From assembly GCA_023701005.1 (NCBI GenBank), contig JAMPXW010000002.1, positions 45,347 through 109,346 of the forward strand: 64,000 bases of DNA, in the 5' to 3' direction. Shown in pieces: positions 30,164 to 53,276 of this stretch. The translations under genes and the position numbers were made by a program. Source of the DNA: Burkholderiales bacterium. GTDB lineage: Bacteria > Patescibacteriota > Minisyncoccia > Phycocordibacterales > UBA9973. The first letter of the stretch is position 1; every line of letters begins with the position of its first letter. Under the pieces are notes generated by a model, which saw only the letters and a list, made by a program, of their open reading frames with translations, did not search any database and was not told the DNA's origin.

Positions 30164-30200
30164 ATAGGCCTGTCGAATAATCGACAGGCCTATTTTTATT
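30164..30200. terminator. Rho-independent terminator after purB, shared with the convergent 30196 gene
   Basis: 'ATAGGCCTGTCGAataaTCGACAGGCCTATttttatt' is a 13-bp perfect stem. Confidence 0.65.
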
Positions 30201-30891: not shown

Positions 30892-31779
30892 ATGATTGAT
30901 AGAATAATAAATACAAAAAATACAAAAGATGCAGAGGTAGTAATATTGAATGCTCCTTATGAGCACAGTGTTTCTTTTGGAGGTGGGACAATAAAAGGTC
31001 CACAAAAAATAATAGAATGCTTAGATAATTATCTAGAACTTTTTGATACTGAATTAAAATGTGAACCAGCTAAAAAAATTAAAACTGCAAAAAAAGAAAT
31101 AACTGGTTTAAAAAATATAAATGGAGAAAAAGCTTCAAAAAAAATAAGCACCGAATATCAAAAATTGTTTAACGATGACAAATTTATAATTATGCTCGGA
31201 GGAGAACATACAGTTTCCTACGGAGCATTAGAAGCTATATCTAAAAAAGAAAATCCTAAAGATATTACAATATTACAAATAGACGCTCACCAAGATTTAA
31301 GAAATGATAGTGGAGATTATAGCGAAAAAAAAGATAAATTTGCTCATTCTTGTGTCATGCGCAGAGCTCATGAACTAGGCTTCCCTATTGTTCAAGTAGG
31401 AATAAGAACATATTCCAAATACGAATACGAATATTGGCAAAATAATAAACAAACTATTACAGTTTTTGGTTGGAATGGAAAAGAAATACCTATAAATAAA
31501 ATTTTAGAATCAATTAAAACTAAAAAGGTTTATCTTACTTTAGATGTTGATGGCTTTGATCCTGCTTTTATGCCAGGCACAGGGACACCAGTGCAAGGTG
31601 GATTAGATTGGTATTATGGATTAAATTTAATAAATAAAATTGTAGATACTAAAAATTTGATTGGCGCAGATATTGTAGAAGTATCACCTCAAAAAGAATC
31701 AGCTCTAACAGAATTTGGAGCAGCTCTTATTTGTTATAAAATAATGGCTCACAAATTTAAAAATAAACTTATCTCTTAA
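30892..31779 (+). CDS. Arginase/agmatinase-family ureohydrolase
   Basis: 'GGEHTVSYGA', 'LQIDAHQDLR' and 'LDVDGFDPAFMPGTGTPVQGGL' are the Mn-binding ureohydrolase motifs. Confidence 0.8.
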   Translation: MIDRIINTKNTKDAEVVILNAPYEHSVSFGGGTIKGPQKIIECLDNYLELFDTELKCEPAKKIKTAKKEITGLKNINGEKASKKISTEYQKLFNDDKFIIMLGGEHTVSYGALEAISKKENPKDITILQIDAHQDLRNDSGDYSEKKDKFAHSCVMRRAHELGFPIVQVGIRTYSKYEYEYWQNNKQTITVFGWNGKEIPINKILESIKTKKVYLTLDVDGFDPAFMPGTGTPVQGGLDWYYGLNLINKIVDTKNLIGADIVEVSPQKESALTEFGAALICYKIMAHKFKNKLIS

Positions 31780-32359
31780 AAATTTTTTTGTGTAAGATAG
31801 AAAAGCTAATAATTGTATTAATTAATACAAAATATATACCCAAAGAGTAAATAGAAAAACTCCATTCTTTTATTATAAACAATCCTAAAATATTATTTAT
31901 AATTGCAAAAGCATAAATATAGACAGATTCTGTCTCTGGGAATTTCCAAGATTTAACAATAGTTGGAATAGCTGCCAATCCATCACTTAAAATAACAAAC
32001 AAAATAGATATCTCTAAATTATGTGTAAATATATAAAGTATTAATGCTAAAAAAGAAACAACTCCACAAATTGAATCAAAAAAAGTTATTTTCCAATAAG
32101 CATTTTTTTTGAATAAAGAATATATAATAACCAAAAATGGCCCAAACCCCGCCATAAAAACAGGCAGAACAGAAAGCCCTGCTCCTGCTTTTAGTTGGAA
32201 AAATACTCCAAGAAAAGGAGCCAACATCCAAATGAACCAAGAAACTAAATTTGGTTTTGTATGTCCTAAAAACATACTTCTTAAATAAAAGAATTCTCCT
32301 ATCAAATTAATCAAAACACCTATATAAATTATATTTTCTGACAACATAAATTTAATCAT
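31769..32359 (-). CDS. Polytopic membrane protein (196 aa, 'HTKP' motif), terminal gene of module 2
   Basis: About 6 TM helices. 'LGHTKPNLVSWFIWMLAPFLG' resembles 'LTHTKPRLGWMLFILAHLG' in the 46397..46945 protein. Confidence 0.5.
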   Translation of the reverse strand: MIKFMLSENIIYIGVLINLIGEFFYLRSMFLGHTKPNLVSWFIWMLAPFLGVFFQLKAGAGLSVLPVFMAGFGPFLVIIYSLFKKNAYWKITFFDSICGVVSFLALILYIFTHNLEISILFVILSDGLAAIPTIVKSWKFPETESVYIYAFAIINNILGLFIIKEWSFSIYSLGIYFVLINTIISFSILHKKIFKR

Positions 32360-32392
32360 CCCTGTGCATAACTAGAAAAGGTCGGACCTTTT

Positions 32393-34108
32393 CTAATACA
32401 CCTCCCCATTATAACATTTCTCACAATACACAATTTCAGGTCGATCAGGAGAATAAGAAGTTTCAAATTCATTAGTGCAGTTTTCTTTCATACATTTCCT
32501 ATGCCAGAGCTTAAGAGGGTTTCTTTGGGATAGTCTATTGTAATGTCTACAGTTAGGACATAAGTGTGGAATGGGTAGATTCATTCTTTTGTAGAATTGA
32601 AGTTCATTTGGAATGATTTTGAAGGCTTCAGTACATTGGTGGTTACATTCTTTATGTTCACATTCTATTACTTTGTTTAATATACTGTCATCTACATCTT
32701 TTATATCATTTGGTATATCTTCTGTTTTAATGTCTATATTGTAGTTTCTTTCTTCTTTGTCTTTCCACTTATATCCTTCCTTTATGGCTTCTTCTTTTGT
32801 TAATGGGAAGTATTCTTGAGCTATGGTTTCATTGTAGGCAAAGGGACTTAATTCTGGTGGGAAGAATTCTCCGTATCTGTATATTCTTCCTTTACTATCT
32901 ATATATGGCATATCATTCATGTGTTGTATTATCTTTGGTATTAGTTCTTCATATTCTTCTTTTGTGTATTGTTTGTTGAGGATGCAGTATTGTTTGTTGC
33001 GGAGAGCGACACAGCCGAAGAGATCATGAGAAGAAATAGAAAGAAACGAATATTTTATATCGTGAGAAGCACGATTTGTCATACCAAACAAAGATCCAGA
33101 TCCTTTAAAAGATGGAGCTACCCCTTCATAAGATGACTCTGTTTGAACTCCACCAAACATGTCCATCGTATCTTTGTTGCCTGCTGAACGAATCACATAT
33201 TTTACATCTTGAGAATTATTAACATTAAAAGAAAAAAGAGCATTCTTTGAATTCTCTATATTATTACCTGAATAATTTACACTATTTAAGGTTTGTATAT
33301 ATTTATGTAGAGTATTTTCTTTTTTTATTTTATTAAATTCTTTCAATAACGTACTTAACGATCTGAAATCACCTATTATAAAATTAGATTTCTTTTCTTC
33401 GTATTCTCCTTTAGAATATTGGACATTACGAATCATGTATTTTTTATTTCTTAAATTTGAAGATAAAAAACAATCTTGGCAATTTGAACAATCAAACAAA
33501 AAAGCTGAATCAATACAACCATTACAATTTTCAAGAAATATACTATTATAATTATTTACTGAATCAGTGTTCTCGTAACACCAAATTAATTTATTACAAA
33601 ATAAGGAATCTAAAACATTTTGACTTTTATCTAAAGCATAAGAATAATCAACATTTTCACAATCCAAAATAGAAGAAGAAAGATAACAATTTTTATCATC
33701 TGTAGAGAAATTAATATAATCAGAATTAATATTATTAAATTTCCAAAGTTGTATTAGTGGAACTTTTTTTACTAAACTTATCCATTGTTCAAAGAAAGGC
33801 TTGTTCCAATCATATTCTAAAAAATAATCTTGGGCATTCCAATCATCTCCCCACCAACATTTATCACAATAAATCTTTGCCTCAAAATCTTGACGATACA
33901 TTGATATAATACCCTTACCACATAAAGCACATTTATTTTTATGAAAGACTCTTTCATTTCTAAAGGTCATTCTCCTTATCATTCTACATTCCGGACAAAA
34001 AGTAGGTGGAGGGACTTTTATTTTCTCATAAAATTTAAAATCTTCAGGCTCTATGGTAAAGTCGCATTTACAATTCTGGCATATTCTTTTTTCATTTTTA
34101 TATTCCAT
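32393..34108 (-). CDS. Cys-rich zinc-ribbon paralog family protein, copy B (571 aa)
   Basis: 'CQNCKCDFTIEPEDFKFYEKIKVPPPTFCPECR' ... 'LRNKQYCILNKQYTKEEYEEL' ... 'LWHRKCMKENCTNEFETSYSPDRPEIVYCEKCYNGEVY'. Confidence 0.85.
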   Translation of the reverse strand: MEYKNEKRICQNCKCDFTIEPEDFKFYEKIKVPPPTFCPECRMIRRMTFRNERVFHKNKCALCGKGIISMYRQDFEAKIYCDKCWWGDDWNAQDYFLEYDWNKPFFEQWISLVKKVPLIQLWKFNNINSDYINFSTDDKNCYLSSSILDCENVDYSYALDKSQNVLDSLFCNKLIWCYENTDSVNNYNSIFLENCNGCIDSAFLFDCSNCQDCFLSSNLRNKKYMIRNVQYSKGEYEEKKSNFIIGDFRSLSTLLKEFNKIKKENTLHKYIQTLNSVNYSGNNIENSKNALFSFNVNNSQDVKYVIRSAGNKDTMDMFGGVQTESSYEGVAPSFKGSGSLFGMTNRASHDIKYSFLSISSHDLFGCVALRNKQYCILNKQYTKEEYEELIPKIIQHMNDMPYIDSKGRIYRYGEFFPPELSPFAYNETIAQEYFPLTKEEAIKEGYKWKDKEERNYNIDIKTEDIPNDIKDVDDSILNKVIECEHKECNHQCTEAFKIIPNELQFYKRMNLPIPHLCPNCRHYNRLSQRNPLKLWHRKCMKENCTNEFETSYSPDRPEIVYCEKCYNGEVY

Positions 34109-34148
34109 ATTTAATATTTACATATGTACACCATGGTTGATATGTGTA

Positions 34149-35867
34149 CTAATACACCTCCTGCTGATAACATTTCTCACAATATATTATTTCTAACCTT
34201 TCTGGAGAATAAGTTGTCTCAAATTCATTATTACATCCATTCTTCATACACTTGCGATGCCAAAGTTTTAATGGATTTCTTAAATTAATACGTTTATAAT
34301 GTCTACAGTTAGGACAAAGTCTAGGGAGAGGTAGATTCATCCTTTTGTAAAATTTTAACTCTTCTGAAACAATCTTAAAAGCTTCTGTGCATTGATCTTT
34401 GCATTTTCCGCCATGCTCACATGCTATAACTTTATTTAATATATCTTCTGAAATATTTTCTACATCGTTTGGTATATCTTCTGTTTTAATATTAATATCA
34501 TAATTTCTAATCTCAGATTCCTTCCAAATATACCCATGTTCTAAAATTTCTTCCTTACTCAAAGGAAAATATTCTTGAGCAATACTTTCATTATAAGCAA
34601 ATGGTGATGCTTCCTTAGGGAAAAATTCACCATACTTATAAACACATCCTTTATTATCAACAAAAGGAACTTCATTCATGTGTTTAATAATTTTAGGTAC
34701 TAATTTTTCATATTCTTCTTTTGTATACTGCCTATTTAAAATACAATATTCTTTCTTATATAAACCTTCACAACCAAAAATATTTAAACAATCATGGCAT
34801 TCTTCTGTATAACGTACGTTTTGATTCGAAAAATTTCTAACACCAAATGCACTATTTGATCCACCAAAACCATGAGCTATTTCATATAAAAATTCAGCAT
34901 TAAAACCCTGGAAAGATGTATCATAACTATCTTTTGTATTATTTCTACTAAAAAATAAATACTTTGAATTTTCAGCTTGTCTAGAACTAAAAGAATTATG
35001 TGTATTTCTAACTTCATACAAGTCATCTCCATCCGAATTAATAGATTTATAAATGTAAGCATATCTATGTGGAATACTAAGTTTTATTTTCTCGAGTTTA
35101 TTCAAAAACTCTTGATGTTTTTCAAAATTATCTAAACTACTTAATTTTATAAATTTTTCATATTCTTCTTTTGTTTTTTGCTCATTAAAAATACAATAAG
35201 ATTTATTAACAAGGCCTACACAACAAAAACAGTTAATACAATTTCTACAATCTATAAGATAACGACTTTCTACACAATCATTGCAATTACGACTAAAAAA
35301 TAAAAGATTTGATCTTGCACATTCAAAAAGTTCATAACTAAATTGAACTTTTTCAGAAAAAGCAACATCTAAAGAATCTTGTGAATCAAAAATTTGATTA
35401 CCAAAATAAACTCTTTCATTATTTATGCCACCAAACAAAAGATAGCACTCTTTCAAATCGAGCCCATAATTACAATACTCACTAGAAATAAAATTCGTTT
35501 GATAAAGATTAGATCTAGGAACTTTTAACTGCAAAGATTTAAATTGTTCAAAAAATGATTTAGAAAAATCATAATCTGTTCCATAATCTAATGGATTCCA
35601 CTTATCTGAAAGCCAACATTCTTTACAATAAACAATAAAAGGTTTTTCTTTGCTATATACGCTAAGTATATTTTTTTTACACAAAAAACACTCACGTCTA
35701 TAAAAAACACGATTATTCCTGAAAAGTAATCTCCTTTGGAATCTACATTCCGGACAAAATGTAGGTGGAGGGACTTTTATTTTCTCATAAAAATTAAAAT
35801 CTTCAGGCTCTATGGTAAAGTCACATTTACAATTCTGACAGTTTTTAATTTCTTGTTTATATTCCAT
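34149..35867 (-). CDS. Cys-rich zinc-ribbon paralog family protein, copy C (572 aa)
   Basis: Same N- and C-terminal modules as copies A and B. Internal 'CVGLVNKSYCIFNEQKTKEEYEK' and 'LYKKEYCILNRQYTKEEYEKL'. Confidence 0.85.
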   Translation of the reverse strand: MEYKQEIKNCQNCKCDFTIEPEDFNFYEKIKVPPPTFCPECRFQRRLLFRNNRVFYRRECFLCKKNILSVYSKEKPFIVYCKECWLSDKWNPLDYGTDYDFSKSFFEQFKSLQLKVPRSNLYQTNFISSEYCNYGLDLKECYLLFGGINNERVYFGNQIFDSQDSLDVAFSEKVQFSYELFECARSNLLFFSRNCNDCVESRYLIDCRNCINCFCCVGLVNKSYCIFNEQKTKEEYEKFIKLSSLDNFEKHQEFLNKLEKIKLSIPHRYAYIYKSINSDGDDLYEVRNTHNSFSSRQAENSKYLFFSRNNTKDSYDTSFQGFNAEFLYEIAHGFGGSNSAFGVRNFSNQNVRYTEECHDCLNIFGCEGLYKKEYCILNRQYTKEEYEKLVPKIIKHMNEVPFVDNKGCVYKYGEFFPKEASPFAYNESIAQEYFPLSKEEILEHGYIWKESEIRNYDINIKTEDIPNDVENISEDILNKVIACEHGGKCKDQCTEAFKIVSEELKFYKRMNLPLPRLCPNCRHYKRINLRNPLKLWHRKCMKNGCNNEFETTYSPERLEIIYCEKCYQQEVY

Positions 35868-35910
35868 TTATTACTTTATACTTTAGGAACTTTATAAACT
35901 TTCTACTATA

Positions 35911-36774
35911 TTATATCCCTTCCTTTTTAAGTTCTTCTAGAAGTTCTCGGGCTTTTTTGGAAATCTTAGTAGGTATCTTGATATTTATTTTTATATACAA
36001 ATCCCCCGTCTTGCCATTCTTAATAGCCTCGCCATACCCAGACATTTTTAAAGTTTGTCCATTCTGTATACCAGCTGGAACATTTATAGACACTTCTTCT
36101 TCCTGACGCAAGACTCCTTTGCCTTTACAATTTTCACATTTTTCTTTTGGAACAGAACCAGAACCTAAACATTCTTCGCAGATTCTTGTATTAGATATAT
36201 TTCCTAAAATCGTCCTTTTTATTTCGCGAATTTTTCCTTGACCATTACAATACCTACAAGTATCCATCTTTGTACCTGGCTTAGCGCCTGAATTATGACA
36301 AACAGAACAGCTCGAAGTCTTGGTGATTGCTAATTTCCTTGTCACACCTAAAACAGAATCAGACAAAGTTATTTGTATTTCTGTACTTATATCTCGTCCG
36401 CGTCTTTGTTTTACTCCACCACCTCCTCTGTTTCCTGTAAAAAAATCACTAAAAATATCATTCAAATTGCCAAAATCAAAATCACCTCCCTGGAATCCTC
36501 CAGAAAAACCACCAAAATCAAAACCTTCAAAGCCACCACGCCCTCCATAGCCCTGATTCATATTTTCAAAACCAGCCCCAAATTGATCATATTTTGCTCG
36601 TTTTCCGTCATCAGAAAGAACTTGGTAAGCTTCATTTACTTCTTTAAATTTCTTTTCATCCCCTTCTTTTTTGTCAGGATGATATTTATGAGCCAATTTA
36701 TAAAAGGCTTTTTTTATTTCGTCTTTAGATGCATTCTTAGCAACACCTAAAATGTCATAATAATCTTTATTCAT
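35911..36774 (-). CDS. dnaJ: Chaperone DnaJ, short form (287 aa; J-domain, G/F region, CxxCxGxG zinc fingers; lacks most of CTD-II and the dimerisation tail)
   Basis: '[33 protein letters not shown]'. G/F-rich '[21 protein letters not shown]'. Four CxxC(x)GxG motifs. The protein ends soon after 'GDLYIKINI'. Confidence 0.85.
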
Positions 36775-36790
36775 AAGGTTTATATAGCCA

Positions 36791-38260
36791 TTATATCATA
36801 GGTTCCGCTTCTTGAGAAGTTGTATTTTTTGAGCTTTCTTCTGCTAAAGATCCTTTACCTTTTCCTTCAATGATTGCTTTTTCTTCCGCGCTTCTTATGA
36901 TAGTAGCTTCTTCTTCTGCAATAAGTTTCTGAGCATCATCTTTTGAAATAGAATATTTCCTACGAGAAGCTTCTATTATTTCTTTGCGATAAGAAGGATG
37001 TGTAGGGGGCAAAACTCTTAATGTTTCAGCAGAAAATGGATCATAAGATTCACCATCAATCGTCATTTTAATATAAAATTCAGCTACAGCTAAATTAATC
37101 ATATCTTTAACTCCGAAAAGTGGTTCAAATTCTGGTTTTAATTTTACTGCATCTTCTCCACCAACTCTAAAACAAATTATACTTCCCGTGTTTCCAAGCA
37201 CAGCATGTTGAACTTGGGGTAATAATTGTCCTATATATTGATGAGCAATGGTTAAGTTCAGTGCATATTTTCTAGCCTCTGACAAAATGTTTTCAAAAGT
37301 ATGTGTGACTATGTTTTGAAACTCATCTATGTATAAATAAAAATCTCTACGATCTTTTTCTGGTATTGCTGCTCTTTCCATTCCAGCTTGTTTTATTTTT
37401 GTTAAGAACATTGAACCAAAGAAACTTGAATTTTCTTCTCCAATGCGTCCTTTTGAAAGATTAATAAAAATAATTTTACCTTCATTCATTAATTTACTAA
37501 TATCAATTTTATTTTGCTTTTGTCCAAATATATTTCGTAGAAGTGGATCAGACAAAAACTGTCCCAATTTGTTAACAAGAGGAATGATAGCATCTGTATC
37601 GAACTTTTCAGACCAATCAGCAAATTCGATAGCGAAGAATCTTTTAACCATGTCGTCAGTAATATATTCGACTACTTTCTGTCTATAATTTCTATCAGTC
37701 AACATCGATATCATTCCACGCATTGTGGCATGAGGATAATCCAAAAGTGCCAAACAAGTAAAACGAAAAACGTGTTCAAGGCGTGGTGTCCAGTTTGCCC
37801 CGAATTGTTTTTGCAAAACCTCAATCAAGCCTTGGGTCAATTGAAATTTGAAAAGCGGATCGACGTTGGCAAGAGGGTTGAAAGAAGCTGGAAAATCTAC
37901 ATCTCCAGGGTCAATAACACAAACATCTTCTATTCTCTCTTTTGGAATATAATCCAGCATCGCGTCGATAACATCTCCGTGTGGATCAATAAGACAAAGG
38001 CCATGATTGTATGTGACGTCTTGGCGAATAAACAATTCCATTAATTTAGTTTTACCAACACCAGACTTACCAACAATATACAAATGTCTTCTTCTATCTA
38101 TTCTTTTTAGACCAAAAATAAATTTCTTTTCTTCAAGTGAAGCTACATAATTTGTACGCCCGATGAAAGAAACCTCTTCGGGATCTACTTTTCCAAAAAC
38201 AGGAAGTTCTGGTGGAGGTGGCCCATATTTTATTATTTGCACTCGATTTGGCTTCGGCAT
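36791..38260 (-). CDS. VirD4/TraD/HerA-like P-loop ATPase (coupling-protein-like, no TM anchor), copy 1 (489 aa)
   Basis: Walker A '[14 protein letters not shown]'. 'LIDPHGD'. Walker B '[10 protein letters not shown]'. 'LNLTIAHQY'. Paralogous to the 42501..44579 protein. Confidence 0.8.
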
Positions 38261-38323
38261 ATATAGCTTAATATTACTACTAATTTATTGATTATTCAAT
38301 GGTAAAAGTATATTATAATAAAC

Positions 38324-39040
38324 ATGAAAATACATAGATTTATAGATAAATTTGATTTTTCAAAAAATAAAATAGAAATAACAAACCCTGAAATAATCAA
38401 CCAAATAAAGCTTGTTTTAAGGCTAAAAAAGGGAGAAATTATAATTTTATCTGACGGTAAAGGTAAAAGTATAGAAGTAACCCTAGATACAATAAATCCA
38501 AATAAAATTATATGTATTCCAAACAAAGGAAACTCTACTGTAAAGAATGATACTGAAAATAAAAAAGTAAATTTATATTTAGCTATATTGAAAAAAGAAA
38601 ATTTTGAATTATCTGTACAGAAAGCAGTAGAAGTCGGTGTATCAAAAATAATACCTGTAATAACAGAAAGAACTATTAAAACGGGTTTAAATGTAATTCG
38701 TTTAGAAAAAATAATCAAAGAAGCTAGTGAACAATGCGGAAGAGATATATTACCTACACTATCTAATATCTCTAAATTTGAAGACGCCCTAAAAGATGGA
38801 GAAAATTCTGAAGAGAAAATTATTTTTCATATAGACAAAAATATTAATAACAATTTCTATACTCCAAATAAAAAAGCAAAAACTTCAAGCATTTTTATAG
38901 GACCAGAAGGTGGTTTTACGGAGAATGAAATAAAACTAGCTAAAAATTTAAATTATAAAATCAGTTCTCTTGGCTCTCTAACCTTGCGTGGAGAAACAGC
39001 CGCCATAGTAGCTACTTATCGTGCAGTCGAAGGAATTTAA
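38324..39040 (+). CDS. rsmE: 16S rRNA (uracil1498-N3)-methyltransferase RsmE
   Basis: C-terminal SPOUT block 'FIGPEGGFTENEIKLAKNLNYKISSLGSLTLRGETAAIVA'. Confidence 0.8.
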   Translation: MKIHRFIDKFDFSKNKIEITNPEIINQIKLVLRLKKGEIIILSDGKGKSIEVTLDTINPNKIICIPNKGNSTVKNDTENKKVNLYLAILKKENFELSVQKAVEVGVSKIIPVITERTIKTGLNVIRLEKIIKEASEQCGRDILPTLSNISKFEDALKDGENSEEKIIFHIDKNINNNFYTPNKKAKTSSIFIGPEGGFTENEIKLAKNLNYKISSLGSLTLRGETAAIVATYRAVEGI

Positions 39041-40740
39041 TAGACCTCTTTGTTATAACAATTTTCACAATATACTATTTCAGGTCTGTCAGGGGCGTAA
39101 GAAGTTTCAAATTCATTATTACAACCTTCTTTCATGCATTTACGATGCCAGAGGTTACGTGGATTTCTCAACATAAATCTATCAGTACGACGACAAGCAA
39201 AACATTTTTCAGGTATGGGTAAATTTAATATTTTATATAAAGATAATTCTAAAGAAGTAATTTTAAAAGCTGTCGTGCATAGAGGATATTCATCTTTATA
39301 ATCATTTAATTTTTGAGATGAACATTGTATTGCTTCTTCTAAAATATTTTCTTTAATTTCTGAAAAAGTTTTGGGTATTTTTTCTGCAGGGATAAAAATC
39401 TTGTAATCTCTTTCTGGTCTATCGTACCATTTATAGCCCTTTCTTTTAGCTTCTTCTTTATTTAAAGGAAAATAATCTTGAGCCATAGATTCATTGTATG
39501 CAAATGGTGAAAAATTAGCTGGAAAATATTCACCCCACTCTTCTATGTCTATCATATGTTTGATTATTTTTTCTTTTAAAGAAAAATAATCTGATTTAGA
39601 ATATTGTTTATTTAAAATACAATAACTTTTTTTCTTTAAGCCAAAACATCCAAAACAATTTTCTACACCAAAACACATATCACAATAATACGAATCAGTA
39701 ATGGTACCAAAACAACTTCTAATAATCATAGATCTATGTGGTGCTTCAACACCTTGAGCTTCATAAGCTAGCTGTCCAGTAATTATTTCTGTACAATCGC
39801 GGCAATCTTCAGAATCCCATGCATCTTGCATATAAGCAGTATCTTTATTTTTATGACAATTAAAACCAAGTTTCATTCTTTGAGTATTTTCTATATAATC
39901 ACCATTAGACTGTTGAACTTGTACACCATGATAAAATTTTATAGGCATGCTAAGTCTTAATTTAAAAGCTTCTTCTTGTGATTTTTTTATAAAATCTCTA
40001 TCCCATTCAAAATTTTTAACTTTTTTTTCATATTCATCTTTTCCTATATTTTTATTAAAATAAAAATACTGTTTATTTCGAAGACCAACACAACCGAAAC
40101 AATCAGTGCATCCCTTGCAATCATTAGAAAAATAGACATTAACACAGTCAGAACAATCAGAAGACCAAAGACAATGAGAACACTTTTTAATATTAATACA
40201 CTCATAACAGTATTCGCTCTTTTCTGCTAAATAACAATCACTTAAAAAATAACAGCCCCACTGACACCAGCTTCCATACATACATTTTTCATTTGAACCA
40301 CTTGTAACAAGCATATAACAATCTTTATTGTTTTGAGATTGATTTGTATATTCGCTATTTACACTACTAGCATTAACCATAGCCAAATGTGGGACTATAT
40401 CGCGCAACTCTTCGTATTGTTCAAAAAAAGATTTATTAAAATCAAAATCTCTTCCATATTTTACAGCATCAAATTTATCTGATTTCCAATATTCTTGTTT
40501 ATAAACAGGGAAAGAAACATTTTCTCTGTAAATTGAAATTATACTTTCTCCAGTAGCATCACATTTTCTTTTATAAAAGTTATATTCATTTCTATCTAAA
40601 AGCCTACGAATATATCTGCATTCCGGGCAAAATGTCGGTGGAGGGACTTTTATTTTCTCATAAAAAGAGAAGTCATCAGGCTCTATAATAAAGTCACATT
40701 TGCAATTTTTACATATTTTGTTTTCACTTTTGTATTCCAT
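39037..40740 (-). CDS. Cys-rich zinc-ribbon paralog family protein, copy D (567 aa)
   Basis: 'CKNCKCDFIIEPDDFSFYEKIKVPPPTFCPECR' ... 'CVGLRNKQYFYFNKNIGKDEYEK' ... 'LWHRKCMKEGCNNEFETSYAPDRPEIVYCENCYNKEVY'. Confidence 0.85.
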   Translation of the reverse strand: MEYKSENKICKNCKCDFIIEPDDFSFYEKIKVPPPTFCPECRYIRRLLDRNEYNFYKRKCDATGESIISIYRENVSFPVYKQEYWKSDKFDAVKYGRDFDFNKSFFEQYEELRDIVPHLAMVNASSVNSEYTNQSQNNKDCYMLVTSGSNEKCMYGSWCQWGCYFLSDCYLAEKSEYCYECINIKKCSHCLWSSDCSDCVNVYFSNDCKGCTDCFGCVGLRNKQYFYFNKNIGKDEYEKKVKNFEWDRDFIKKSQEEAFKLRLSMPIKFYHGVQVQQSNGDYIENTQRMKLGFNCHKNKDTAYMQDAWDSEDCRDCTEIITGQLAYEAQGVEAPHRSMIIRSCFGTITDSYYCDMCFGVENCFGCFGLKKKSYCILNKQYSKSDYFSLKEKIIKHMIDIEEWGEYFPANFSPFAYNESMAQDYFPLNKEEAKRKGYKWYDRPERDYKIFIPAEKIPKTFSEIKENILEEAIQCSSQKLNDYKDEYPLCTTAFKITSLELSLYKILNLPIPEKCFACRRTDRFMLRNPRNLWHRKCMKEGCNNEFETSYAPDRPEIVYCENCYNKEVY

Positions 40741-40742
40741 GT

Positions 40743-42497
40743 TTAATACACTTCTTTATTATAACAATTTTCACAATATACTATTTCAGGTCTGTCGGGA
40801 GCGTAAGGCGTTTTGAAAGTAGCCAAACATTTACCTTGATGTCCATGACCCTCATTTTCACACATACATTCTCTACGCCAAAGTTTCATTGGATTACGTT
40901 TCTTCAACCTATTCTCATGACGACAATTAAAACAAAATCTCGGTAAAGGAACTCCTAATTTTCTATATAAATTAAATTCATCTAAGATTATTTTATAAGC
41001 TCCCCTACAATATCCACTTTCTGTATCTTTATTTTTACAACCAATAATTTCATTCAAAATTGATTCATCAACATCTCTTAAATCATCAGGCAAATCTACT
41101 GATTCAATAGTCGTCACATATTCACTCACCTTCTTGTCTCTCCACCTATAACCATTTTTTATAGCTTCTTCTTTATTTAAAGGAAAATAATCTTGAGCTT
41201 GAGTTTCGTTGTAACAAAAAGTAGACATTTCTGCAGGGAAAAATTCACCATATTTATAAATTAGACCCCTCTTGTCTATATATGGCATATCGTTCATGTG
41301 TTGTTTTATTTTTGGTATTAATTCTTCATATTCTTCTTTTGTGTATTGTTTATTTAAAATACAATATTTCTTCGTTCGAAGACCTATACATCCAAATATA
41401 TTGTCACAACCATGACAATTGAAAGAATATTCTACATTATTAGAACTATAAACAACACTAGTAAATAAATTACGAAAATTCCCTATTCCTGTATCAAAAG
41501 ACTCATACAATAATTCACCATCTCCAACTCCGGGGCCAGAATCATATGCATCTTTTAAGAAATAAGCTGCCCAATGAATAAATTTACAATCTTCTATTCT
41601 ATTTCCAACTGCATCAAAAGAATATCTACAATTTTTTACACCTTCTAAATTATCCCCCGTTGAATTCATTACTTTATTTTGGTTTGAAAAACGATGCAAA
41701 GATTTTGAATGAATTTCTTTAAATTTTTCTTTCAATTCTTCAACAACTTTATAACTTTTTAAATTTATTTCTGACAATCGGCTTAAATATTCATCCCTAG
41801 AAAGTTGCTCATTCCACATACAATACGATTTATTACGTAAATTTGTGCAACCAAAACAATTTATACAACCATGACAATCATATAGAAAATAAGAATCTAC
41901 ACAACTTTTACAATTGGTAGAGTACAAAGTCTGATAACAATCTGAACAAAATAAGTTTTCATAACAGAGTTCACATCTGTGTGCTACATAAACATCTGAG
42001 CATTCTTTTGTCATTGTTATTCTATTAGAATATAAAGTCCTATCTATTTGCCATGAACCAGAACACAAATAACTATCTTTGCTGCCCTCCGCCACATTAC
42101 AATAATCACTATTAGTGGCTTTTATATTAGAAAGACTTTGTAATGGAATTTTATCTCTCAATTCTTTCCATTGTGTAAAAAATGTTTTAGAAAAATCATA
42201 TTCTTTTCCAAAAGAAACTGCATTCCATTCATCTCCCCACCAATACTTACTATCACAAACGACAACCTCTTCAGAAGGATGAATAAAAGAAACAAGCATC
42301 TCGTTGTGACCTGGAGCATCACATTTTCTTTTAAATAGAGACATTTCATTTCTCCAGCACAGCCTTCTAATAGTCCTACATTCTGGGCAAAATGTCGGAG
42401 GAGGAACCTTTATTTTTTCATAAAATTTAAAATCTTCTGGCTTTAATACAAAGTCTATTTTACAATTCTGGCAAATAATTTTGACTTCGTTTTCCAT
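40743..42497 (-). CDS. Cys-rich zinc-ribbon paralog family protein, copy E (584 aa)
   Basis: 'CQNCKIDFVLKPEDFKFYEKIKVPPPTFCPECR' ... 'CTNLRNKSYCMWNEQLSRDEY' ... 'CIGLRTKKYCILNKQYTKEEYEEL' ... 'PEIVYCENCYNKEVY'. Confidence 0.85.
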   Translation of the reverse strand: MENEVKIICQNCKIDFVLKPEDFKFYEKIKVPPPTFCPECRTIRRLCWRNEMSLFKRKCDAPGHNEMLVSFIHPSEEVVVCDSKYWWGDEWNAVSFGKEYDFSKTFFTQWKELRDKIPLQSLSNIKATNSDYCNVAEGSKDSYLCSGSWQIDRTLYSNRITMTKECSDVYVAHRCELCYENLFCSDCYQTLYSTNCKSCVDSYFLYDCHGCINCFGCTNLRNKSYCMWNEQLSRDEYLSRLSEINLKSYKVVEELKEKFKEIHSKSLHRFSNQNKVMNSTGDNLEGVKNCRYSFDAVGNRIEDCKFIHWAAYFLKDAYDSGPGVGDGELLYESFDTGIGNFRNLFTSVVYSSNNVEYSFNCHGCDNIFGCIGLRTKKYCILNKQYTKEEYEELIPKIKQHMNDMPYIDKRGLIYKYGEFFPAEMSTFCYNETQAQDYFPLNKEEAIKNGYRWRDKKVSEYVTTIESVDLPDDLRDVDESILNEIIGCKNKDTESGYCRGAYKIILDEFNLYRKLGVPLPRFCFNCRHENRLKKRNPMKLWRRECMCENEGHGHQGKCLATFKTPYAPDRPEIVYCENCYNKEVY

Positions 42498-42500
42498 TTT

Positions 42501-44579
42501 TTATTCCAAAATCTTTTTTAAAACATCTTCAGAAACTTCTTTTGTCTCAGTTTTAGGAATATTTTTTACTAAATCATCAAGATTAGAAGGCTCAGGAACT
42601 TTTTCTTCAGAAATTTTGACTTCTTCTTTAATTACTTTATCAGATATAAAATTCTTTAATTTATTCATTTCATCTACACTGGCTGATCTGTCTTTTGTGG
42701 ATGTTGGATGAGTATTTGATTGAGTATTTTTTAATTCACTTAAAGATATCTGTTTTACTTGTACTGGTTTTTCTTTTACTATCTCCTTTTTTATAGCCTC
42801 TGGTTCTTTTTTAGCTAAAGTCTTGTCTAATATTTCTCTTAAAGCTAAATTCTCTTTTGGTTTTTCTTTTGTAAATACCTTCTTAAAAGCAGAAAATATT
42901 TTTGGCTTTACCGGAATAAATGGTTTCTGAATATTGGGCACATTAACATTTTTGATTTCTGCTTCATTGTGTATATTTTTATCTATCCTTTCTGGATACC
43001 TTTCAGCACTATTATTCATTCCATCTTTTTGTTTAAATTCTATACCCAGATCAGCCAATGGTTTATAAAATTTAGATTCATCTTGTTTTATTTGATTTAA
43101 TGAACCTTTTATAGGTTTAACTTCTCCTGATTTTATCTTTGCTATACAATCTCTACAATAGACAGCTCTACCTGCTTCTGGTTTAAAAGGAACAAAAGTA
43201 TCTTTTTTACAAACAGAACATTGTGCGGGAAATTTCTCTACTCCAAGGCCATTGGTATCATCACCCAAAGACATTCCACTCCAATTGTTTATTTCTCTTT
43301 CTACGACTTCTCTCGATCTACAATAAAGTTCACGTGATGATTTGATAACTTCCTCTTCGACTTCTTTATTACCAGATTTTGCCATAGGAGGTAAGGTTTT
43401 TGCCGAAAAAGGACGAGATGTTATACCGTCAATCATTAATTTCAAATAAATTTTAAAGTTAGGCAAACTGACAATATCTTGAGGTGTAAATTCTGGTTCA
43501 AATTCTTTTTCTAAAAATTCTGCATCGTCAGCACCTACTCTAAATATAATCATCGTTCCAACGTTACCAAAAATAGAATCTCTCACACTTGAATTTTTGT
43601 CTGAAACTAATTGTGCAGTATACTGATGCGCCACAGTAAGATTCAATCTGTATTTTCTAGCTTCAGATAATATAGAAGCGAAAGAATCTGTAACGAAATT
43701 TTGGAATTCGTCGACATATAAATAAAAATCTTTTCTTTCATCTTCGGGTATACGGACACGTTCCATGGCAGCAAGTTGAATTTTAGTGATGAGCATACCT
43801 CCCAACAAAGAAGAGTTATCTTCACCGATACGTCCCTTAGAAACATTCACAAGGAATATCTTCCCTTCGTTCATTATGTCAAAGACATTTATTGTACTTT
43901 TTGATTGCCCAACGACATTTCTTATGATTGAAGTAGACAAGAATTGTCCAACTTTATTTTGTATAGGAGCAATAGCTTCATTTCTAAACTTATCTTGCCA
44001 AGCTTCATATTCATGAACCCAAAAAGATTTGATGACTGGATCTTTTAAATTAGAAATTATTTTCTGACGATAGTCTTTATCTACCAACATTCTAGGAATA
44101 CCGAGCATTGTGGTGCCTGGAGTATCAAGTAAAGCCAAAATGGCATTATTCAAAATATATTCCATCCTGGCAGACCAAGCATTGGCCCATATCTTCGTAA
44201 AGATCCCCATAAGTCCAGACGCCACTAAGTGTTTATATTTTGGATCAACTAATTCAAGAACATTAAATCCAATATGATAATCAGGGTCACTAGGATTAAA
44301 ATAGACAACATCTTTCATTCGATGAGGAGGAATAGCACCTAAAACACTTTCGACTAATTCTCCATGCGGGTCGACAACACAAACACCAGAACCATTTTCA
44401 ATATTCTGAACTATCATATTAAACATCAATACAGACTTACCTGTACCAGATTTTCCAAGTATATAAACATGCTGACGTCTATCTTTGCGTTTTATGCCAA
44501 AAAGCTGATTTTTATCTCTATAAGTAGTGAGCCCAATGTATGTAAGATCCTTATTTTTTGGTATCTCTTTGATATCCAT
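42501..44579 (-). CDS. VirD4/TraD/HerA-like P-loop ATPase, copy 2 (692 aa), with a C-terminal zinc ribbon and a K/E-rich low-complexity tail
   Basis: Walker A 'YILGKSGTGKSVLM'. 'VVDPHGE'. Walker B 'FYLYVDEFQN'. 'LNLTVAHQY'. C-terminal 'CSVCKKDTFVPFKPEAGRAVYCRDC', then a K/E/P-rich tail. Confidence 0.8.
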   Translation of the reverse strand: MDIKEIPKNKDLTYIGLTTYRDKNQLFGIKRKDRRQHVYILGKSGTGKSVLMFNMIVQNIENGSGVCVVDPHGELVESVLGAIPPHRMKDVVYFNPSDPDYHIGFNVLELVDPKYKHLVASGLMGIFTKIWANAWSARMEYILNNAILALLDTPGTTMLGIPRMLVDKDYRQKIISNLKDPVIKSFWVHEYEAWQDKFRNEAIAPIQNKVGQFLSTSIIRNVVGQSKSTINVFDIMNEGKIFLVNVSKGRIGEDNSSLLGGMLITKIQLAAMERVRIPEDERKDFYLYVDEFQNFVTDSFASILSEARKYRLNLTVAHQYTAQLVSDKNSSVRDSIFGNVGTMIIFRVGADDAEFLEKEFEPEFTPQDIVSLPNFKIYLKLMIDGITSRPFSAKTLPPMAKSGNKEVEEEVIKSSRELYCRSREVVEREINNWSGMSLGDDTNGLGVEKFPAQCSVCKKDTFVPFKPEAGRAVYCRDCIAKIKSGEVKPIKGSLNQIKQDESKFYKPLADLGIEFKQKDGMNNSAERYPERIDKNIHNEAEIKNVNVPNIQKPFIPVKPKIFSAFKKVFTKEKPKENLALREILDKTLAKKEPEAIKKEIVKEKPVQVKQISLSELKNTQSNTHPTSTKDRSASVDEMNKLKNFISDKVIKEEVKISEEKVPEPSNLDDLVKNIPKTETKEVSEDVLKKILE

Positions 44580-44612
44580 ATATAATATTATACAAGAAAA
44601 AAAACGTTTTTA

Positions 44613-46301
44613 CTAATATATTTCTTTCTGATAACAAGCCTCACAATAAACTATCTCTGGTCTTTCGGGAGCATAAGAAGTCTCAAATTCATTATTACAA
44701 CCCTCTTTCATACATTTACGATGCCAAAGTCTTGGTGGATTACGTTTTTCTACTCTCTCAAAATATCTACAATTTGGACAAAGATGTGGGATAGGAATAT
44801 TTAATTTTTTATACAATCCCAATTCATTTTGCAAGACCCTAAAAGCAGTAGTGCAATTATGATTACATTTTCCATTGTGTCCACAGCTTATTATTTCTTG
44901 TATTATATTATCTTTTATATCATTTATATCCTCTGGTAATTGATCTATCGGTAAAGTAACTTTATAATCTCTTAAATCTGCATCACGCCAACAATATCCT
45001 TTATCTTCAACTTCTTTCTTTGTCAGTGGAAAAAGTTCCTGTGCCTCAGATTCATTGTAAGCAAAAGGGCTAATCCAATATGGGAAAAATTCTCCAAATT
45101 CCTTTGTCTTTTTCATATGTTCAATTATTTTTTCTTTCAAATTCTCATATTCTTCTTTGTTGTATTTCTTATTTAAAATTGAATAAGAACCTTTCTTCAT
45201 TCCGACACAACCAAAACAATTTTCAGCAGAAGGAGAAAACAAAGAATAGTAAATATCTCGACATTGAAAACAAAAAACTGAAAAATAATTTCTCTGAGAA
45301 TTATCTGCTACAACTACTTCATAACACTGCTCTGCTTTTCCACTCATTAAACTATCATAAGTGTCTTTTGTCGTATCGCTACCAAAAATAAATCTCTGAT
45401 TTTCTCCGTTAATTACCTGGAAAGCATATTTTACATTTTTACAATTTATCAAAAAATCACCAGTAGAAATTACGGATTTTTTGATATAAGAATATTTATG
45501 AGGGAAATTAGAACAAAAATCTTTAAATTCTTTTTTATATTTTTCTACAGAATAAAAATTACTTAAATTCATCTTTTTTAATTTTATTTCATATTCTTCT
45601 TTTGTATATTGTTTATTTTTTATACAATAGCTTTTATTTCTTAAGCCAATACACATAATACAATTCAAACATCCACTCAAATCATAACCCAAAAAACAAT
45701 CCTGGCATTCTGAACAATAGGTACAATACTTAGAACGTGCTATCTTATAGCACTGCAGACATTCATAAGCGAGCTCCGCTTCTCTCATGTGCATACAGTC
45801 AAGCATATCTTTGTTGTGTTCAATATGAAAAGAATATAAAACATTTTCCGCGTGCCAACCGGAAACACACATATAACAATTTTTACTAAAAAACCAATCA
45901 TATGTATATTCACAATTTACACTTGCTACTTCATTATCATTTGTAATCGAGAGAGCAGGAACTATTAATGACAACTCTTTTAGTTGCTCAAAAAAGTTTT
46001 TAGAAAAATCAAATTCTATCCCATATTGACATGGATCCCAATTATCACTCCACCAACATTTTTGACAATAAACTGGGAATGGTGCATTTGTTGGATAAAT
46101 AGAAATTATATTTTTCTTACACAAGTCACATTCTCTTTTATATAAGGTATGGCCATTTCGAAACATCATTCGTCTCTGCATTCTACATTCCGGGCAAAAA
46201 GTTGGTGGTGGAACAACTATTTTCTCATAAAAACCAAAATCATCCGGCTCTATTGTGAAGTCTTTTTTACAGTTTTGACAATTTTTAATTTCAGATTGCA
46301 T
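44613..46301 (-). CDS. Cys-rich zinc-ribbon paralog family protein, copy F (562 aa)
   Basis: 'CQNCKKDFTIEPDDFGFYEKIVVPPPTFCPECR' ... 'CIGLRNKSYCIKNKQYTKEEYE' ... 'LWHRKCMKEGCNNEFETSYAPERPEIVYCEACYQKEIY'. Confidence 0.85.
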   Translation of the reverse strand: MQSEIKNCQNCKKDFTIEPDDFGFYEKIVVPPPTFCPECRMQRRMMFRNGHTLYKRECDLCKKNIISIYPTNAPFPVYCQKCWWSDNWDPCQYGIEFDFSKNFFEQLKELSLIVPALSITNDNEVASVNCEYTYDWFFSKNCYMCVSGWHAENVLYSFHIEHNKDMLDCMHMREAELAYECLQCYKIARSKYCTYCSECQDCFLGYDLSGCLNCIMCIGLRNKSYCIKNKQYTKEEYEIKLKKMNLSNFYSVEKYKKEFKDFCSNFPHKYSYIKKSVISTGDFLINCKNVKYAFQVINGENQRFIFGSDTTKDTYDSLMSGKAEQCYEVVVADNSQRNYFSVFCFQCRDIYYSLFSPSAENCFGCVGMKKGSYSILNKKYNKEEYENLKEKIIEHMKKTKEFGEFFPYWISPFAYNESEAQELFPLTKKEVEDKGYCWRDADLRDYKVTLPIDQLPEDINDIKDNIIQEIISCGHNGKCNHNCTTAFRVLQNELGLYKKLNIPIPHLCPNCRYFERVEKRNPPRLWHRKCMKEGCNNEFETSYAPERPEIVYCEACYQKEIY

Positions 46302-46396
46302 AACTATATAATATGCTTTTTTACCTCCAAAATCAAAAGAATTATAAAACTTAATTTTATATCAAAAAAGAGTCTTTCAATGAAGAAAAACTCTTT

Positions 46397-46945
46397 TTAC
46401 TTTTGTTTTGGAAATAAAAATCCAACTATTGCAATGATACCTGAAGCAATTTGGAAAATTCCAAAAAAAATCTCTCCTTTTTTAAAACCAAGATAAGTAC
46501 TTCCCAAATGAGCTAATATAAACAACATCCATCCCAACCTGGGTTTTGTGTGAGTTAAATAATAAGTACCTAAAAGAAATGTCACAGAACTGAAAAATTC
46601 AATTACTGTTAAAATTCCATTAAACACAAAATACATAAAAACACACAACAGCCCAATTATAAAAAAATTAATAACTAGCTCTGTTTTAGGATTCTTCTGA
46701 CTATCATTCTTTTTGACAAGAAAACCATAAAACATTAATACAAAAACTCCAAATTCCATTATTACATAAATATGGAGCCCTATTATAAGAAAATAAAAAA
46801 TTGCCAAAAAACCAGCAAAGGAACCCACCAACCAAGCATATCTTTCTATACTTTTTTCTTTACCAATAAAAAGAAGTATTTTATTAATAAAAAAAATGAT
46901 AGAAACACTTACTCGTAAAAATGTTAAAAACATTTTTATCTCCAA
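46397..46945 (-). CDS. Polytopic membrane protein (182 aa, 'HTKP' motif), first gene of module 1
   Basis: About 6 TM helices. 'YLTHTKPRLGWMLFILAHLGSTYLG' shares the HTKP block with the 31769..32359 protein. Confidence 0.5.
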   Translation of the reverse strand: MEIKMFLTFLRVSVSIIFFINKILLFIGKEKSIERYAWLVGSFAGFLAIFYFLIIGLHIYVIMEFGVFVLMFYGFLVKKNDSQKNPKTELVINFFIIGLLCVFMYFVFNGILTVIEFFSSVTFLLGTYYLTHTKPRLGWMLFILAHLGSTYLGFKKGEIFFGIFQIASGIIAIVGFLFPKQK

Positions 46946-47025
46946 ATTTTATTTTAGAAACAATGAACTTTACTTTTTTATAATACTATTTAATTTAAAT
47001 TAAGTCAATATCTTAAATAATTAAC

Positions 47026-47057
47026 AAAAAGACGGAAGCAAGGCTTCCGTCTTTTTG
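47026..47057 (-). terminator. Rho-independent terminator of dnaK
   Basis: 'aaaaaGACGGAAGCaaggCTTCCGTCtttttg'. On the minus strand the stem is followed by a T-run immediately downstream of the dnaK stop. Confidence 0.6.
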
Positions 47058-47092
47058 TCTTCACCTACAAAATAAGTCTAAGGAGGCTATGT

Positions 47093-53275: not shown

Positions 53276-53276
53276 A

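Follow-up and report, generated by a model that had tools for sequence, protein, structure and literature searches.

Patescibacteria, a large share of bacterial diversity, have minimal genomes and live as epibionts, and for most of the genes specific to their lineages no function is known. In the accessible text of a recent survey (PMC12102498), 5,713 homologues of the VirD4-type coupling ATPase were counted in 2,918 Patescibacteria genomes, or ~2 per genome, with 148 of them near virB4, and exaptation of these proteins for other functions was not ruled out; as far as that text goes, the ATPase superfamily and its orphan status in Patescibacteria are already known. The locus described here lies in a 64,000-nucleotide (nt) stretch of contig JAMPXW010000002.1 (assembly GCA_023701005.1), referred to below as the window, and combines the chaperone genes grpE, dnaK and dnaJ with two ATPases of the type IV coupling protein (T4CP) superfamily (ATPase-1 and ATPase-2), a small membrane protein (mem196) and a family of cysteine-rich (Cys-rich) proteins. 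The two ATPases are the same proteins as the orphan VirD4-type homologues of the survey, and the window likewise has two copies and no type IV secretion system (T4SS) gene nearby. The accessible text of PMC12102498, in which the term "DnaK" does not occur, is without the embedding among dnaK and dnaJ, the linkage to Cys-rich genes and the membrane protein (TM-460) that in other lineages is the partner of the ATPase or is fused to it. A preliminary description of the window had divided the locus into two duplicated modules; comparison with related genomes shows instead one conserved chromosomal locus of Nomurabacteria-like Patescibacteria, in which the ATPases and the Cys-rich family are associated in a real, conserved and non-random, but not obligatory, way.

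Some T4CPs lack a transmembrane (TM) domain and depend on a small membrane protein encoded by another gene, as in TraJ/TraI of pIP501 and in TraG-TraJ pairs (PMC7434980). The window ATPases are alike in being soluble members of the TrwB superfamily, and in other Patescibacteria the role of membrane anchor could fall to TM-460 and a smaller protein, TM-175, which are encoded upstream and sometimes fused. Unlike those systems, the window has no plasmid, relaxase, VirB4 or mating-pair genes and the anchor gene is absent from it; TM-460 (~450 amino acids (aa), PF26449) is also unlike TraI or TraJ in size.

The second point of comparison is the canonical hrcA-grpE-dnaK-dnaJ operon. Here too grpE, dnaK and dnaJ follow one another in the usual order on one strand, but ~22 kb with two ATPase genes, nine Cys-rich genes, an ATP-binding cassette (ABC) exporter, a PnuC-like gene and an antisense rsmE is interposed, a PaaX-like gene diverges from dnaK, and DnaJ is shortened. 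No match to the CIRCE (controlling inverted repeat of chaperone expression) operator was found in the window at up to 3 mismatches, and heat-shock regulation through CIRCE was dropped on this ground. The third comparison, an analogy of logic, is with type VII secretion, in which an FtsK/HerA-superfamily motor, EssC/EccC, serves a dedicated substrate family, the WXG100 proteins; the locus would be similar in having the gene of a ring ATPase beside many paralogous clients that share a recognition element. To our knowledge, EssC has no sequence relationship to the window ATPases beyond the P-loop, and the candidate clients, unlike the helical hairpins of WXG100, are 570-aa zinc-rich proteins, beside which no channel component was identified.

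The searchable literature yielded no description of the Cys-rich family, of its linkage to the ATPases, of the dnaK-dnaJ embedding of the ATPase pair or of TM-460 as partner and in fusions. Through the locus this family is tied to orphan VirD4-like ATPases, the role of which is treated as unresolved in the accessible text of PMC12102498, and the Cys-rich arrays, the TM-460 partner and fusions and the DnaK/DnaJ operon are testable handles on a role of these ATPases other than conjugation.

One conserved locus in Nomurabacteria-like Patescibacteria

An ATPase alignment was scanned against one genome per GTDB species, and 80 loci among the matches listed, from many candidate phyla, were annotated locally; together with a further sample of 79 metagenome loci, ~160 related loci (given L numbers below) were compared. 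The backbone grpE - dnaK - ATPase-2 - ATPase-1 - dnaJ - mem196 was found in at least 16 related genomes. In the Nomurabacteria-like loci (L002, L004-L016, L024 and L038) the order is grpE, a PaaX-like gene on the opposite strand, dnaK, ATPase-2, ATPase-1, dnaJ, mem196 and agmatinase. In the window the backbone lies on the minus strand and begins with grpE (58554-59165; Pfam GrpE, E 8.6e-38), which is syntenic with grpE in L009, L012, L014 and L016. It continues with dnaK (47093-48985; identified by its translation, with the HSP70 Pfam match on an identical contig), ATPase-2 (42501-44579), ATPase-1 (36791-38260) and dnaJ (35911-36774), and ends with mem196 (31769-32359), which encodes a 196-aa membrane protein with seven TM helices.

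Between these genes are four slots (grpE/dnaK, dnaK/ATPase-2, ATPase-2/ATPase-1 and dnaJ/mem196) that are variably filled with 0-4 Cys-rich genes, as they also are in L110-L112, L118 and L119. The backbone of L012 is complete with zero Cys-rich genes, and L014 and L016 differ from it solely by one such gene between grpE and dnaK. In the window the Cys-rich genes among the backbone are on the same strand with gaps of 1-113 nt. Copies K (56915-58597), J (55088-56869), I (53277-54974) and H (51533-53275) are between grpE and dnaK, with 1 nt separating I from H; copy F (44613-46301) is between dnaK and ATPase-2; copies E (40743-42497) and D (39037-40740) are between the ATPases; and copies C (34149-35867) and B (32393-34108) are between dnaJ and mem196. 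A tenth, copy A (11552-13270, also minus strand), is far from any ATPase, between mraY and scpB.

Each subfamily of Cys-rich genes is mostly found in one and the same slot from genome to genome: that of C and B follows dnaJ, that of E separates the ATPases, that of F follows dnaK and that of K follows grpE. Orthologues of K (54-81% identity) occupy the same grpE/dnaK slot in L016, L038 and L115, those of E (69-73%) the same slot in L002, L004 and L110, and those of C (70-79%) the same slot in L002 and L006; for D no close orthologue was found among the loci compared. Since orthologues of C, E and K elsewhere are 66-81% identical, as against at most 52% for paralogs inside this genome, the Cys-rich paralogs must predate these species. 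In a neighbour-joining (NJ) tree of slot-labelled copies, B and C, and likewise I and J, were sister tandem pairs, whereas F, E and D fell into separate old subfamilies, and no copy of the first proposed module paired with one of the second. From these comparisons and the tree, the Cys-rich content of the locus is best read as family turnover within a single locus, through tandem duplication together with gain and loss.

It is against this background that the two modules of the preliminary description have to be judged. Its observations were largely correct. All ten open reading frames (ORFs) that it named are on the minus strand in the order and at the coordinates it claimed; the gaps in its first module are exactly 95, 33, 3 and 2 nt (those in the second are 16, 43, 40 and 33 nt); and the first module has, as claimed, its own upstream region after the dnaK terminator, namely a terminator-like hairpin with a 17-bp stem (47023-47059, minus strand) and a promoter-like TTGACT-17-TATTAT at 47008-46980, ahead of the first gene. 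The rule that each module holds one ATPase, one membrane protein and two to three paralogs is literally accurate but selective, as five Cys-rich copies are outside both: the four between grpE and dnaK (51533-58597) and the one between mraY and scpB, neither group with its own ATPase or membrane gene.

The interpretation placed on these observations, that an ancestral unit of ATPase, HTKP membrane protein and Cys-rich gene was copied whole and then diverged, turned out to be wrong. The gene content of both stretches fits it literally, the ATPases are indeed paralogs, and both small proteins (mem182 and mem196) are polytopic membrane proteins that carry the tetrapeptide HTKP. However, in relatives there is a single backbone, and ATPase-2 and ATPase-1 are often directly adjacent (L012, L014, L016, L036, L037 and L045-L047), which points to an old tandem duplication of the ATPase gene. 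The phylogeny that the preliminary description had proposed as a check on co-duplication, carried out here as the NJ tree of the Cys-rich copies, grouped B with C inside a module and gave no pair between modules. Taken with the five outlying copies and the behavior of the membrane proteins described next, the synteny of the 160 related loci and the tree led us to reject block duplication, which we regard as scarcely credible.

The two HTKP membrane proteins are not demonstrable paralogs. The only BLASTP match between them is a 37-aa non-collinear one (residues 24-60 versus 123-158, E 4e-4), and hhalign of mem182 with a profile of 23 mem196 homologues gave a probability of 0.64%; the H of HTKP is not conserved within the mem196 family. 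The first of the two, mem182 (46397-46945, minus strand; 182 aa), is PnuC-like: it matches Pfam NMN_transporter/PnuC (PF04973) marginally, at 28.6 bits against a cut-off of 27.3, over profile positions 23-171 of 175, and this match is tagged "weak" on an independent contig. No homologue of it was present in any of the ~160 related loci, ATPase-centred or from the further metagenome sample, so that mem182 is specific to this lineage and probably a passenger in the locus. For mem196, there was no Pfam match even at E up to 10; its family has at least 816 homologues, all named hypothetical, with a Pfam domain on 0 of 120 among the matches listed. The AlphaFold2 (AF2) model of mem196 has seven helices and was weakly similar in Foldseek to the KDEL receptor and cystinosin (E 0.2-0.5), members of the superfamily of PnuC, which would be in keeping with block duplication; PnuC itself (4qtn) ranked 22nd, at E 4.5. 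Paralogy could thus not be demonstrated by BLASTP, Pfam, hhalign or AF2 with Foldseek, and the two proteins share at most a 7-TM superfamily. The gene mem196 follows dnaJ in L002, L006, L009, L010, L012, L015, L016, L024 and L038, and does so whether or not Cys-rich genes are present (L012, L016).

The dnaJ gene itself encodes 287 aa with Pfam DnaJ, DnaJ_CXXCXGXG and partial DnaJ_C matches: the J domain (89 bits) and the zinc finger (53 bits) are in place, while the DnaJ_C match is confined to profile positions 2-78 of 152. The lengths of orthologous ORFs run from 219 aa in L002 to ~365 aa in other relatives, and DnaJ appears to be eroding in this clade.

The two ATPases and their membrane partner

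The paralogy of the ATPases, which the preliminary description had noted, is clear: a pairwise comparison gave 45.1% identity over 428 aa (E 2e-133). ATPase-2 is a P-loop ATPase of the T4CP (TrwB/VirD4) superfamily, with 41.2 bits against TrwB_AAD_bind (E 1.3e-10) and 34.8 bits against T4SS-DNA_transf, and ATPase-1 is a derived T4CP-like paralog with 27.6 and 22.6 bits, respectively (Pfam cut-offs of 20.5 and 20.1); the cut-offs of the TraG-D_C and DUF87 models were also exceeded by both. The nearest solved relatives of a nine-member ATPase profile in the PDB were TrwB (5.9e-8) and DotL (1.1e-5). The curated T4CP equivalogs of NCBIfam were not reached, with 48.5 and 49.4 bits versus a cut-off of 250 for the CD1115 VirD4-like model and 45-48 bits versus 366 for SXT TraD. 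Neither ATPase has a TM segment, as the highest 19-residue Kyte-Doolittle mean was 0.96 in ATPase-1 and 1.06 in ATPase-2, and true membrane proteins reach 2.2-2.7. Among the annotated genes of the 64-kb window there was no T4SS or relaxase family (Pfam, NCBIfam).

The two proteins differ at their C-termini. ATPase-2 has a CxxC-x17-CxxC zinc finger at residues 454-478 followed by a ~200-aa tail rich in K and E, and its residues 448-482 match TIGR04272 (42.9 bits, cut-off 36) and PF23477 (zf_Tbcl_2; 40.5 bits, cut-off 27, E 2.1e-10); ATPase-1 has neither finger nor tail. Orthologues of ATPase-1 are 82-91% identical and those of ATPase-2 67-76%, and ATPase-2 is 51-76% identical to ATPases across many candidate phyla. 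ATPase-2 is the type found across Patescibacteria and ATPase-1 a derived paralog confined to the lineages that bear Cys-rich genes. Relatives of these ATPases were present in at least 585 of the 600 stretches listed in the scan of one genome per GTDB species; they are near-universal in Patescibacteria and highly conserved. Their neighbors in the 80 ATPase-centred loci are dnaK/dnaJ, TM-460, secF, a helix-turn-helix (HTH) protein and Cys-rich genes.

The membrane partner of the ATPases became apparent from clustering of the ORFs near them. In nearly all loci outside the Nomurabacteria-like group, a gene for TM-460, a protein of ~450 aa with two N-terminal TM helices, lies ahead of the ATPase gene on its strand (for example L028:7989-9392, L053:8668-10005, L076:8533-9951 and L046:8033-9442 + 9446-9979). 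In ATPase-1 lineages TM-460 is followed by TM-175, a single-TM protein of ~175 aa, and secF and a gene for a sigma70_r4/HARE-HTH protein are frequent farther upstream. TM-460 and the ATPase are fused in at least 11 ORFs (such as L042:9119-11374, L052:8891-11716 and L067:305-3502), which is Rosetta-stone evidence that they work together. Pfam has a precomputed but nameless accession for TM-460 (PF26449), and a PDB profile search gave no relative of it. It is not encoded in the 64-kb window nor in L002-L020. The motif R..GPPANLPI at the C-terminus of TM-460 nevertheless recurs within the first ~22 residues of the window ATPase-1 (23 residues, letters not shown), where the N-terminal PPPPELP (within a stretch of 10 residues) matches GPPANLPI of TM-460, and this shared motif has the appearance of a remnant left at a former point of fusion or fission.

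In L027, L028, L030 and L142, operons of the form TM-460 - TM-175 - ATPase-1 - Cys-rich (one to six genes) were found. The intuition behind the preliminary description, of a unit made up of membrane protein, ATPase and paralogs, thus corresponds to something real, but the membrane partner is TM-460/TM-175 and not the HTKP proteins. That the latter are components of such a unit is not supported, given that mem182 is in none of the related loci and that mem196 tracks dnaJ and is missing from the ATPase and Cys-rich arrays of other lineages.

Some matches of the ATPases could also be taken to indicate an anti-phage or conflict system, in which HerA- or MADS-like ATPases would act with a diversified family of sensors or effectors. 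Their DUF87/HerA central domain (28.5 and 38.6 bits, cut-off 23.2) overlaps the T4CP matches; HerA was retrieved in the PDB profile search at 8e-4 and by PADLOC at 2.8e-8 over parts of the protein only, a superfamily-level likeness; and PADLOC gave weak matches, likewise over parts only, to mad8 (4e-16 and 5.7e-11). The cores of the Cys-rich proteins are strongly diversified and a SoFic-type gene is beside grpE, as a defence role would allow. Yet the ATPases occur in nearly all the stretches listed, at ~2 per genome in the accessible text of PMC12102498, and in a fixed housekeeping context (dnaK/dnaJ or secDF). In addition, the Cys-rich subfamilies are kept as 66-81% identical orthologues rather than being patchy, the Cys-rich proteins have no PADLOC match, and no nuclease or effector domain was found. 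With weak mad8 and HerA matches of the ATPases only, a defence system was judged very improbable.

The Cys-rich family and its association with the ATPases

The window contains exactly ten full-length Cys-rich copies and no fragments, which take up ~27% of its length. Consistent with the earlier claim of a paralog family, each is ~570 aa long with 29-40 Cys, and pairwise identities are 38-52%, except for copy K, the most divergent, which is 29-35% identical to the rest. The closest pairs, B-C (the top pair, at 52%) and I-J, are tandem neighbors. None of the proteins had an above-threshold match in Pfam, NCBIfam or PADLOC. A profile search of 1.84 billion cluster representatives found 5,162 clusters (50% identity), 2,257 of them at E up to 1e-30, and the best 150 of the 5,162 were mostly 530-610 aa long and matched end to end. 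These proteins have no described family or function and form one of the larger families of bacterial proteins that lack annotation.

For copy C, AF2 gave a confident model (predicted local distance difference test score (pLDDT) 81, predicted template modelling score (pTM) 0.81), which, taken with the sequences, indicates a layout with a pair of zinc-ribbon modules at either end, two narrow beta-solenoids mid-protein and a conserved alpha/beta segment. Four zinc-ribbon-type sites were seen in the sequence, at C10/13/38/41, C60/63/81/84, C483/493/518/521 and C540/545/563/566. The CxxC-x17-CxxC spacing of the ATPase-2 tail recurs in the second and fourth sites, which also bear the VYCxxC signature, and C-x2(4)-C-x17-C-x2-C occurs at ~60-84 in 6 of the 10 copies and at ~540-566 in 8. 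Pairwise identity among the ten paralogs falls from 0.6-0.65 at the ends to 0.19-0.32 in the solenoid cores. A CxxC-x17-CxxC domain binds zinc in small proteins of M. mazei (PMC12704099); the ATPase-2 tail is a bona fide member of this domain family (TIGR04272/zf_Tbcl_2), whereas the Cys-rich proteins are below the family thresholds, with sub-threshold hidden Markov model matches to zf_Tbcl_2 (E 0.01) in 3 of 26 and to zf_Tbcl (E 0.003) in 8 of 26. An internal duplication in copy C is suggested by alignment of its motifs and was not detected by BLASTP self-comparison. No signal peptide or TM segment was found in the Cys-rich proteins, which are predicted to be cytoplasmic.

Foldseek of the model against the PDB gave no whole-protein match. 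Similarity to other narrow beta-solenoid proteins, namely insect and plant ice-binding proteins, left-handed beta-helix acyltransferases and gamma-carbonic anhydrases, amounts to 1-11% identity only. The Cys-rich proteins differ from the left-handed beta-helix enzymes in having no hexapeptide-repeat Pfam match and no apparent catalytic residues, and from narrow beta-solenoid proteins at large in their predicted cytoplasmic location and the four zinc-ribbon modules that flank the solenoids.

The zinc-ribbon modules are followed by Arg-rich helices (CRxxRRLxxRNxR), and these raise the question of whether the ATPases are nucleic-acid motors of the FtsK/TrwB kind, for DNA uptake, segregation or RNA handling, with the Cys-rich proteins as zinc-ribbon nucleic-acid-binding cofactors rather than clients. 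The closest solved relative, TrwB, is a DNA-dependent ATPase, ATPase-2 has its zinc finger and K/E-rich tail, and the operon elsewhere includes the sigma70_r4/HARE-HTH protein. Conversely, none of the libraries recognized a nucleic-acid-binding domain, a relaxase, ComEC or similar gene is not in the locus, and it is not obvious why at least ten paralogs with distinct beta-solenoids would be needed. We consider this role improbable.

The association of ATPase and Cys-rich genes was evident from both directions. In ATPase-centred loci of ATPase-1-type lineages, Cys-rich genes were in the flanks of 31 of 45; the nearest was less than 500 bp away in 20 loci and on the ATPase strand in 30 of the 31. 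In ATPase-2-only lineages, by contrast, Cys-rich genes were present in 2 of 36 loci. A Cys-rich gene was the immediate neighbor of ATPase-1 in 39 of 120 flanks. When metagenome loci of at least 10 kb were instead centred on Cys-rich genes, an ATPase was found in 18 of 46 (39%), 11 of these 18 being outside a dnaK context, compared with an expectation, by our own estimate, of ~3-5% if a ~0.7-Mb genome has one or two ATPase loci. Same-strand arrays of 3-11 Cys-rich genes beside ATPase-1 and far from dnaK/dnaJ were seen in L017, L020, L030, L031 and the Abawacabacteria locus L042, and in L044 three copies are 2.2 kb downstream of the ATPase on the opposite strand. The suggestion of a functional unit in the preliminary description was thus partly right: the link between ATPases and Cys-rich proteins stands, and the HTKP proteins drop out of it.

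Is the link functional? The Cys-rich genes could simply be an expanding family whose tandem duplicates pile up in those gaps between genes of a strongly expressed operon that tolerate them, with the ATPases as mere neighbors. Copy numbers and slots do vary, tandem sister pairs exist, and many solitary copies are amid housekeeping genes. This account is nonetheless unlikely, for several reasons. The association recurs in unrelated contexts and distant lineages, namely the TM-460 - ATPase-1 - Cys-rich arrays and the Abawacabacteria and Peribacteria loci L042-L044. Moreover, the nearest Cys-rich gene is almost invariably on the ATPase strand, usually after a short gap; co-occurrence is well above the estimated expectation; lineages that lack ATPase-1 rarely have Cys-rich genes near their ATPases; and subfamilies keep their slots across genomes.

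The explanation towards which we lean, if only slightly, is a single backbone locus whose ATPase motors act on or with the Cys-rich proteins. We take as its established base the architecture of the locus and the domain organization of the Cys-rich proteins, together with the paralogy, the linkage and, for other lineages, the membrane tether. As rings, the ATPases would be motors of the coupling-protein kind, and the Cys-rich proteins would be what they work on or work with. The near-invariant zinc-ribbon ends may be common handles recognized by the ATPase, and ATPase-2 itself bears one CxxC-x17-CxxC finger apparently of the same kind. What each protein does individually, whether as cargo or as an adaptor for specificity, would reside in its beta-solenoid core, which differs between subfamilies. 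Since TM-460 (with TM-175) would tether the motor in most other Patescibacteria, the activity of the motor is probably at the membrane, in export, presentation to a channel or assembly; from the position of the locus among the DnaK, DnaJ and GrpE genes, the clients would seem to require chaperones. Passengers in this scheme would be the PnuC-like gene, the ABC exporter and rsmE.

Several findings weigh against a dedicated motor-client relationship. No ATPase was present within ~10 kb in 28 of the 46 Cys-rich-centred loci (61%), as accumulation of the genes without a functional link would also predict, and 16 of the 46 have a single Cys-rich copy. Copy A and two copies of L001, the latter in a purine operon, are amid housekeeping genes. 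L012 and L013 have the full ATPase/chaperone backbone and no Cys-rich gene, so the ATPases need no locally encoded Cys-rich genes, and ATPase-2 with TM-460 is conserved in many lineages with no Cys-rich gene nearby, so the ancestral role of the motor was independent of the family. According to the accessible text of PMC12102498, a T4CP homologue was non-essential in S. epibionticum, the sole cultivated species tested. The window encodes neither TM-460 nor VirB4 or another channel component. The similarity of the ATPase-2 finger to the Cys-rich family is weak (hhalign E 6.8e-4, probability 27%), and tightly zinc-bound, folded proteins are unlikely substrates for translocation. Finally, the link is known from gene neighborhood, and physical or functional contact between ATPase and Cys-rich proteins is putative.

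We speculate further on a Patescibacteria-specific protein-handling pathway, in which a T4CP motor, exapted from conjugation, duplicated and tethered by TM-460, would export or install zinc-ribbon/beta-solenoid proteins to the envelope or the host cell with the aid of DnaK/DnaJ. The zinc-ribbon ends would then be a secretion or docking signal and the solenoids surfaces for host interaction. In this full form the proposal is speculative and rather unlikely. If the Cys-rich proteins were indeed exported cargo or adaptors, they would represent a new secretion or assembly route relevant to an epibiotic lifestyle; if they are not exported, so large an unannotated family still merits definition as a family.

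Other genes of the window

Three further genes are interspersed with the backbone. The PaaX-like winged-helix gene (49118-49630, plus strand; Pfam PaaX_M, E 1e-18) is divergent from dnaK and occurs on the opposite strand upstream of dnaK also in L008, L009, L012, L014-L016 and L038; it may stand in for HrcA as local regulator of the operon with dnaK and the ATPases. Its product is a Cas2-like winged-helix protein. The ABC exporter (49614-51395, minus strand), with membrane and ATPase domains fused (Pfam ABC_membrane and ABC_tran), has a 75% identical orthologue at the same place in L015 and is a variable passenger of the locus. The rsmE gene (38324-39040, plus strand; NCBIfam RsmE TIGR00046, 136.9 bits) is antisense to its neighbors and separates two transcription units, so that read-through from the upstream unit would be antisense to it. 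At its 3' end it shares 4 nt with the end of copy D, and its position and orientation are conserved in a subclade (L005, L013, L112, L118, L119 and L131).

For mem182, the likely true start is the ATG at 46933 (178 aa) rather than the TTG at 46945, because a GGAG ribosome-binding site precedes it and the gene is called at 178 aa on the identical independent contig. In L018, L019, L022, L034 and L039 a cytidylyltransferase-like gene, 28-35% identical to the window at 7000-7500, is between ATPase-1 and ATPase-2; its presence, like that of the PnuC-like mem182, by the ATPases could be a link to nicotinamide adenine dinucleotide (NAD) salvage or a coincidence.

Copy A stands alone inside a cell-wall/division cluster (murG, ftsW, mraY, copy A, scpB, scpA, metK), which indicates that members of the family can be expressed from housekeeping operons. 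Directly upstream of grpE is a gene for a SoFic-type Fic/DOC adenylyltransferase (59230-60414; PADLOC SoFic, 3.8e-96), and in L001 a Fic gene likewise abuts a Cys-rich gene. At the other end, the locus is adjoined by a 177-aa ORF (30196-30729, minus strand) with no Pfam or NCBIfam match, and a perfect palindrome with a 13-bp stem (30164-30193), terminator-like in both directions, separates this ORF from the convergent gene at 28658-30151 (plus strand).

At NCBI, the locus tags NDI62_01970 and NDI62_01980, the latter corresponding exactly to copy C, carry the label "Burkholderiales bacterium". The close homologues are all from Candidatus Nomurabacteria, Paceibacterota or Patescibacteria. Given a guanine-cytosine content of ~30% for the window and Patescibacteria (Nomurabacteria-like) homologues throughout, the Burkholderiales label is probably wrong or the contig mis-binned.

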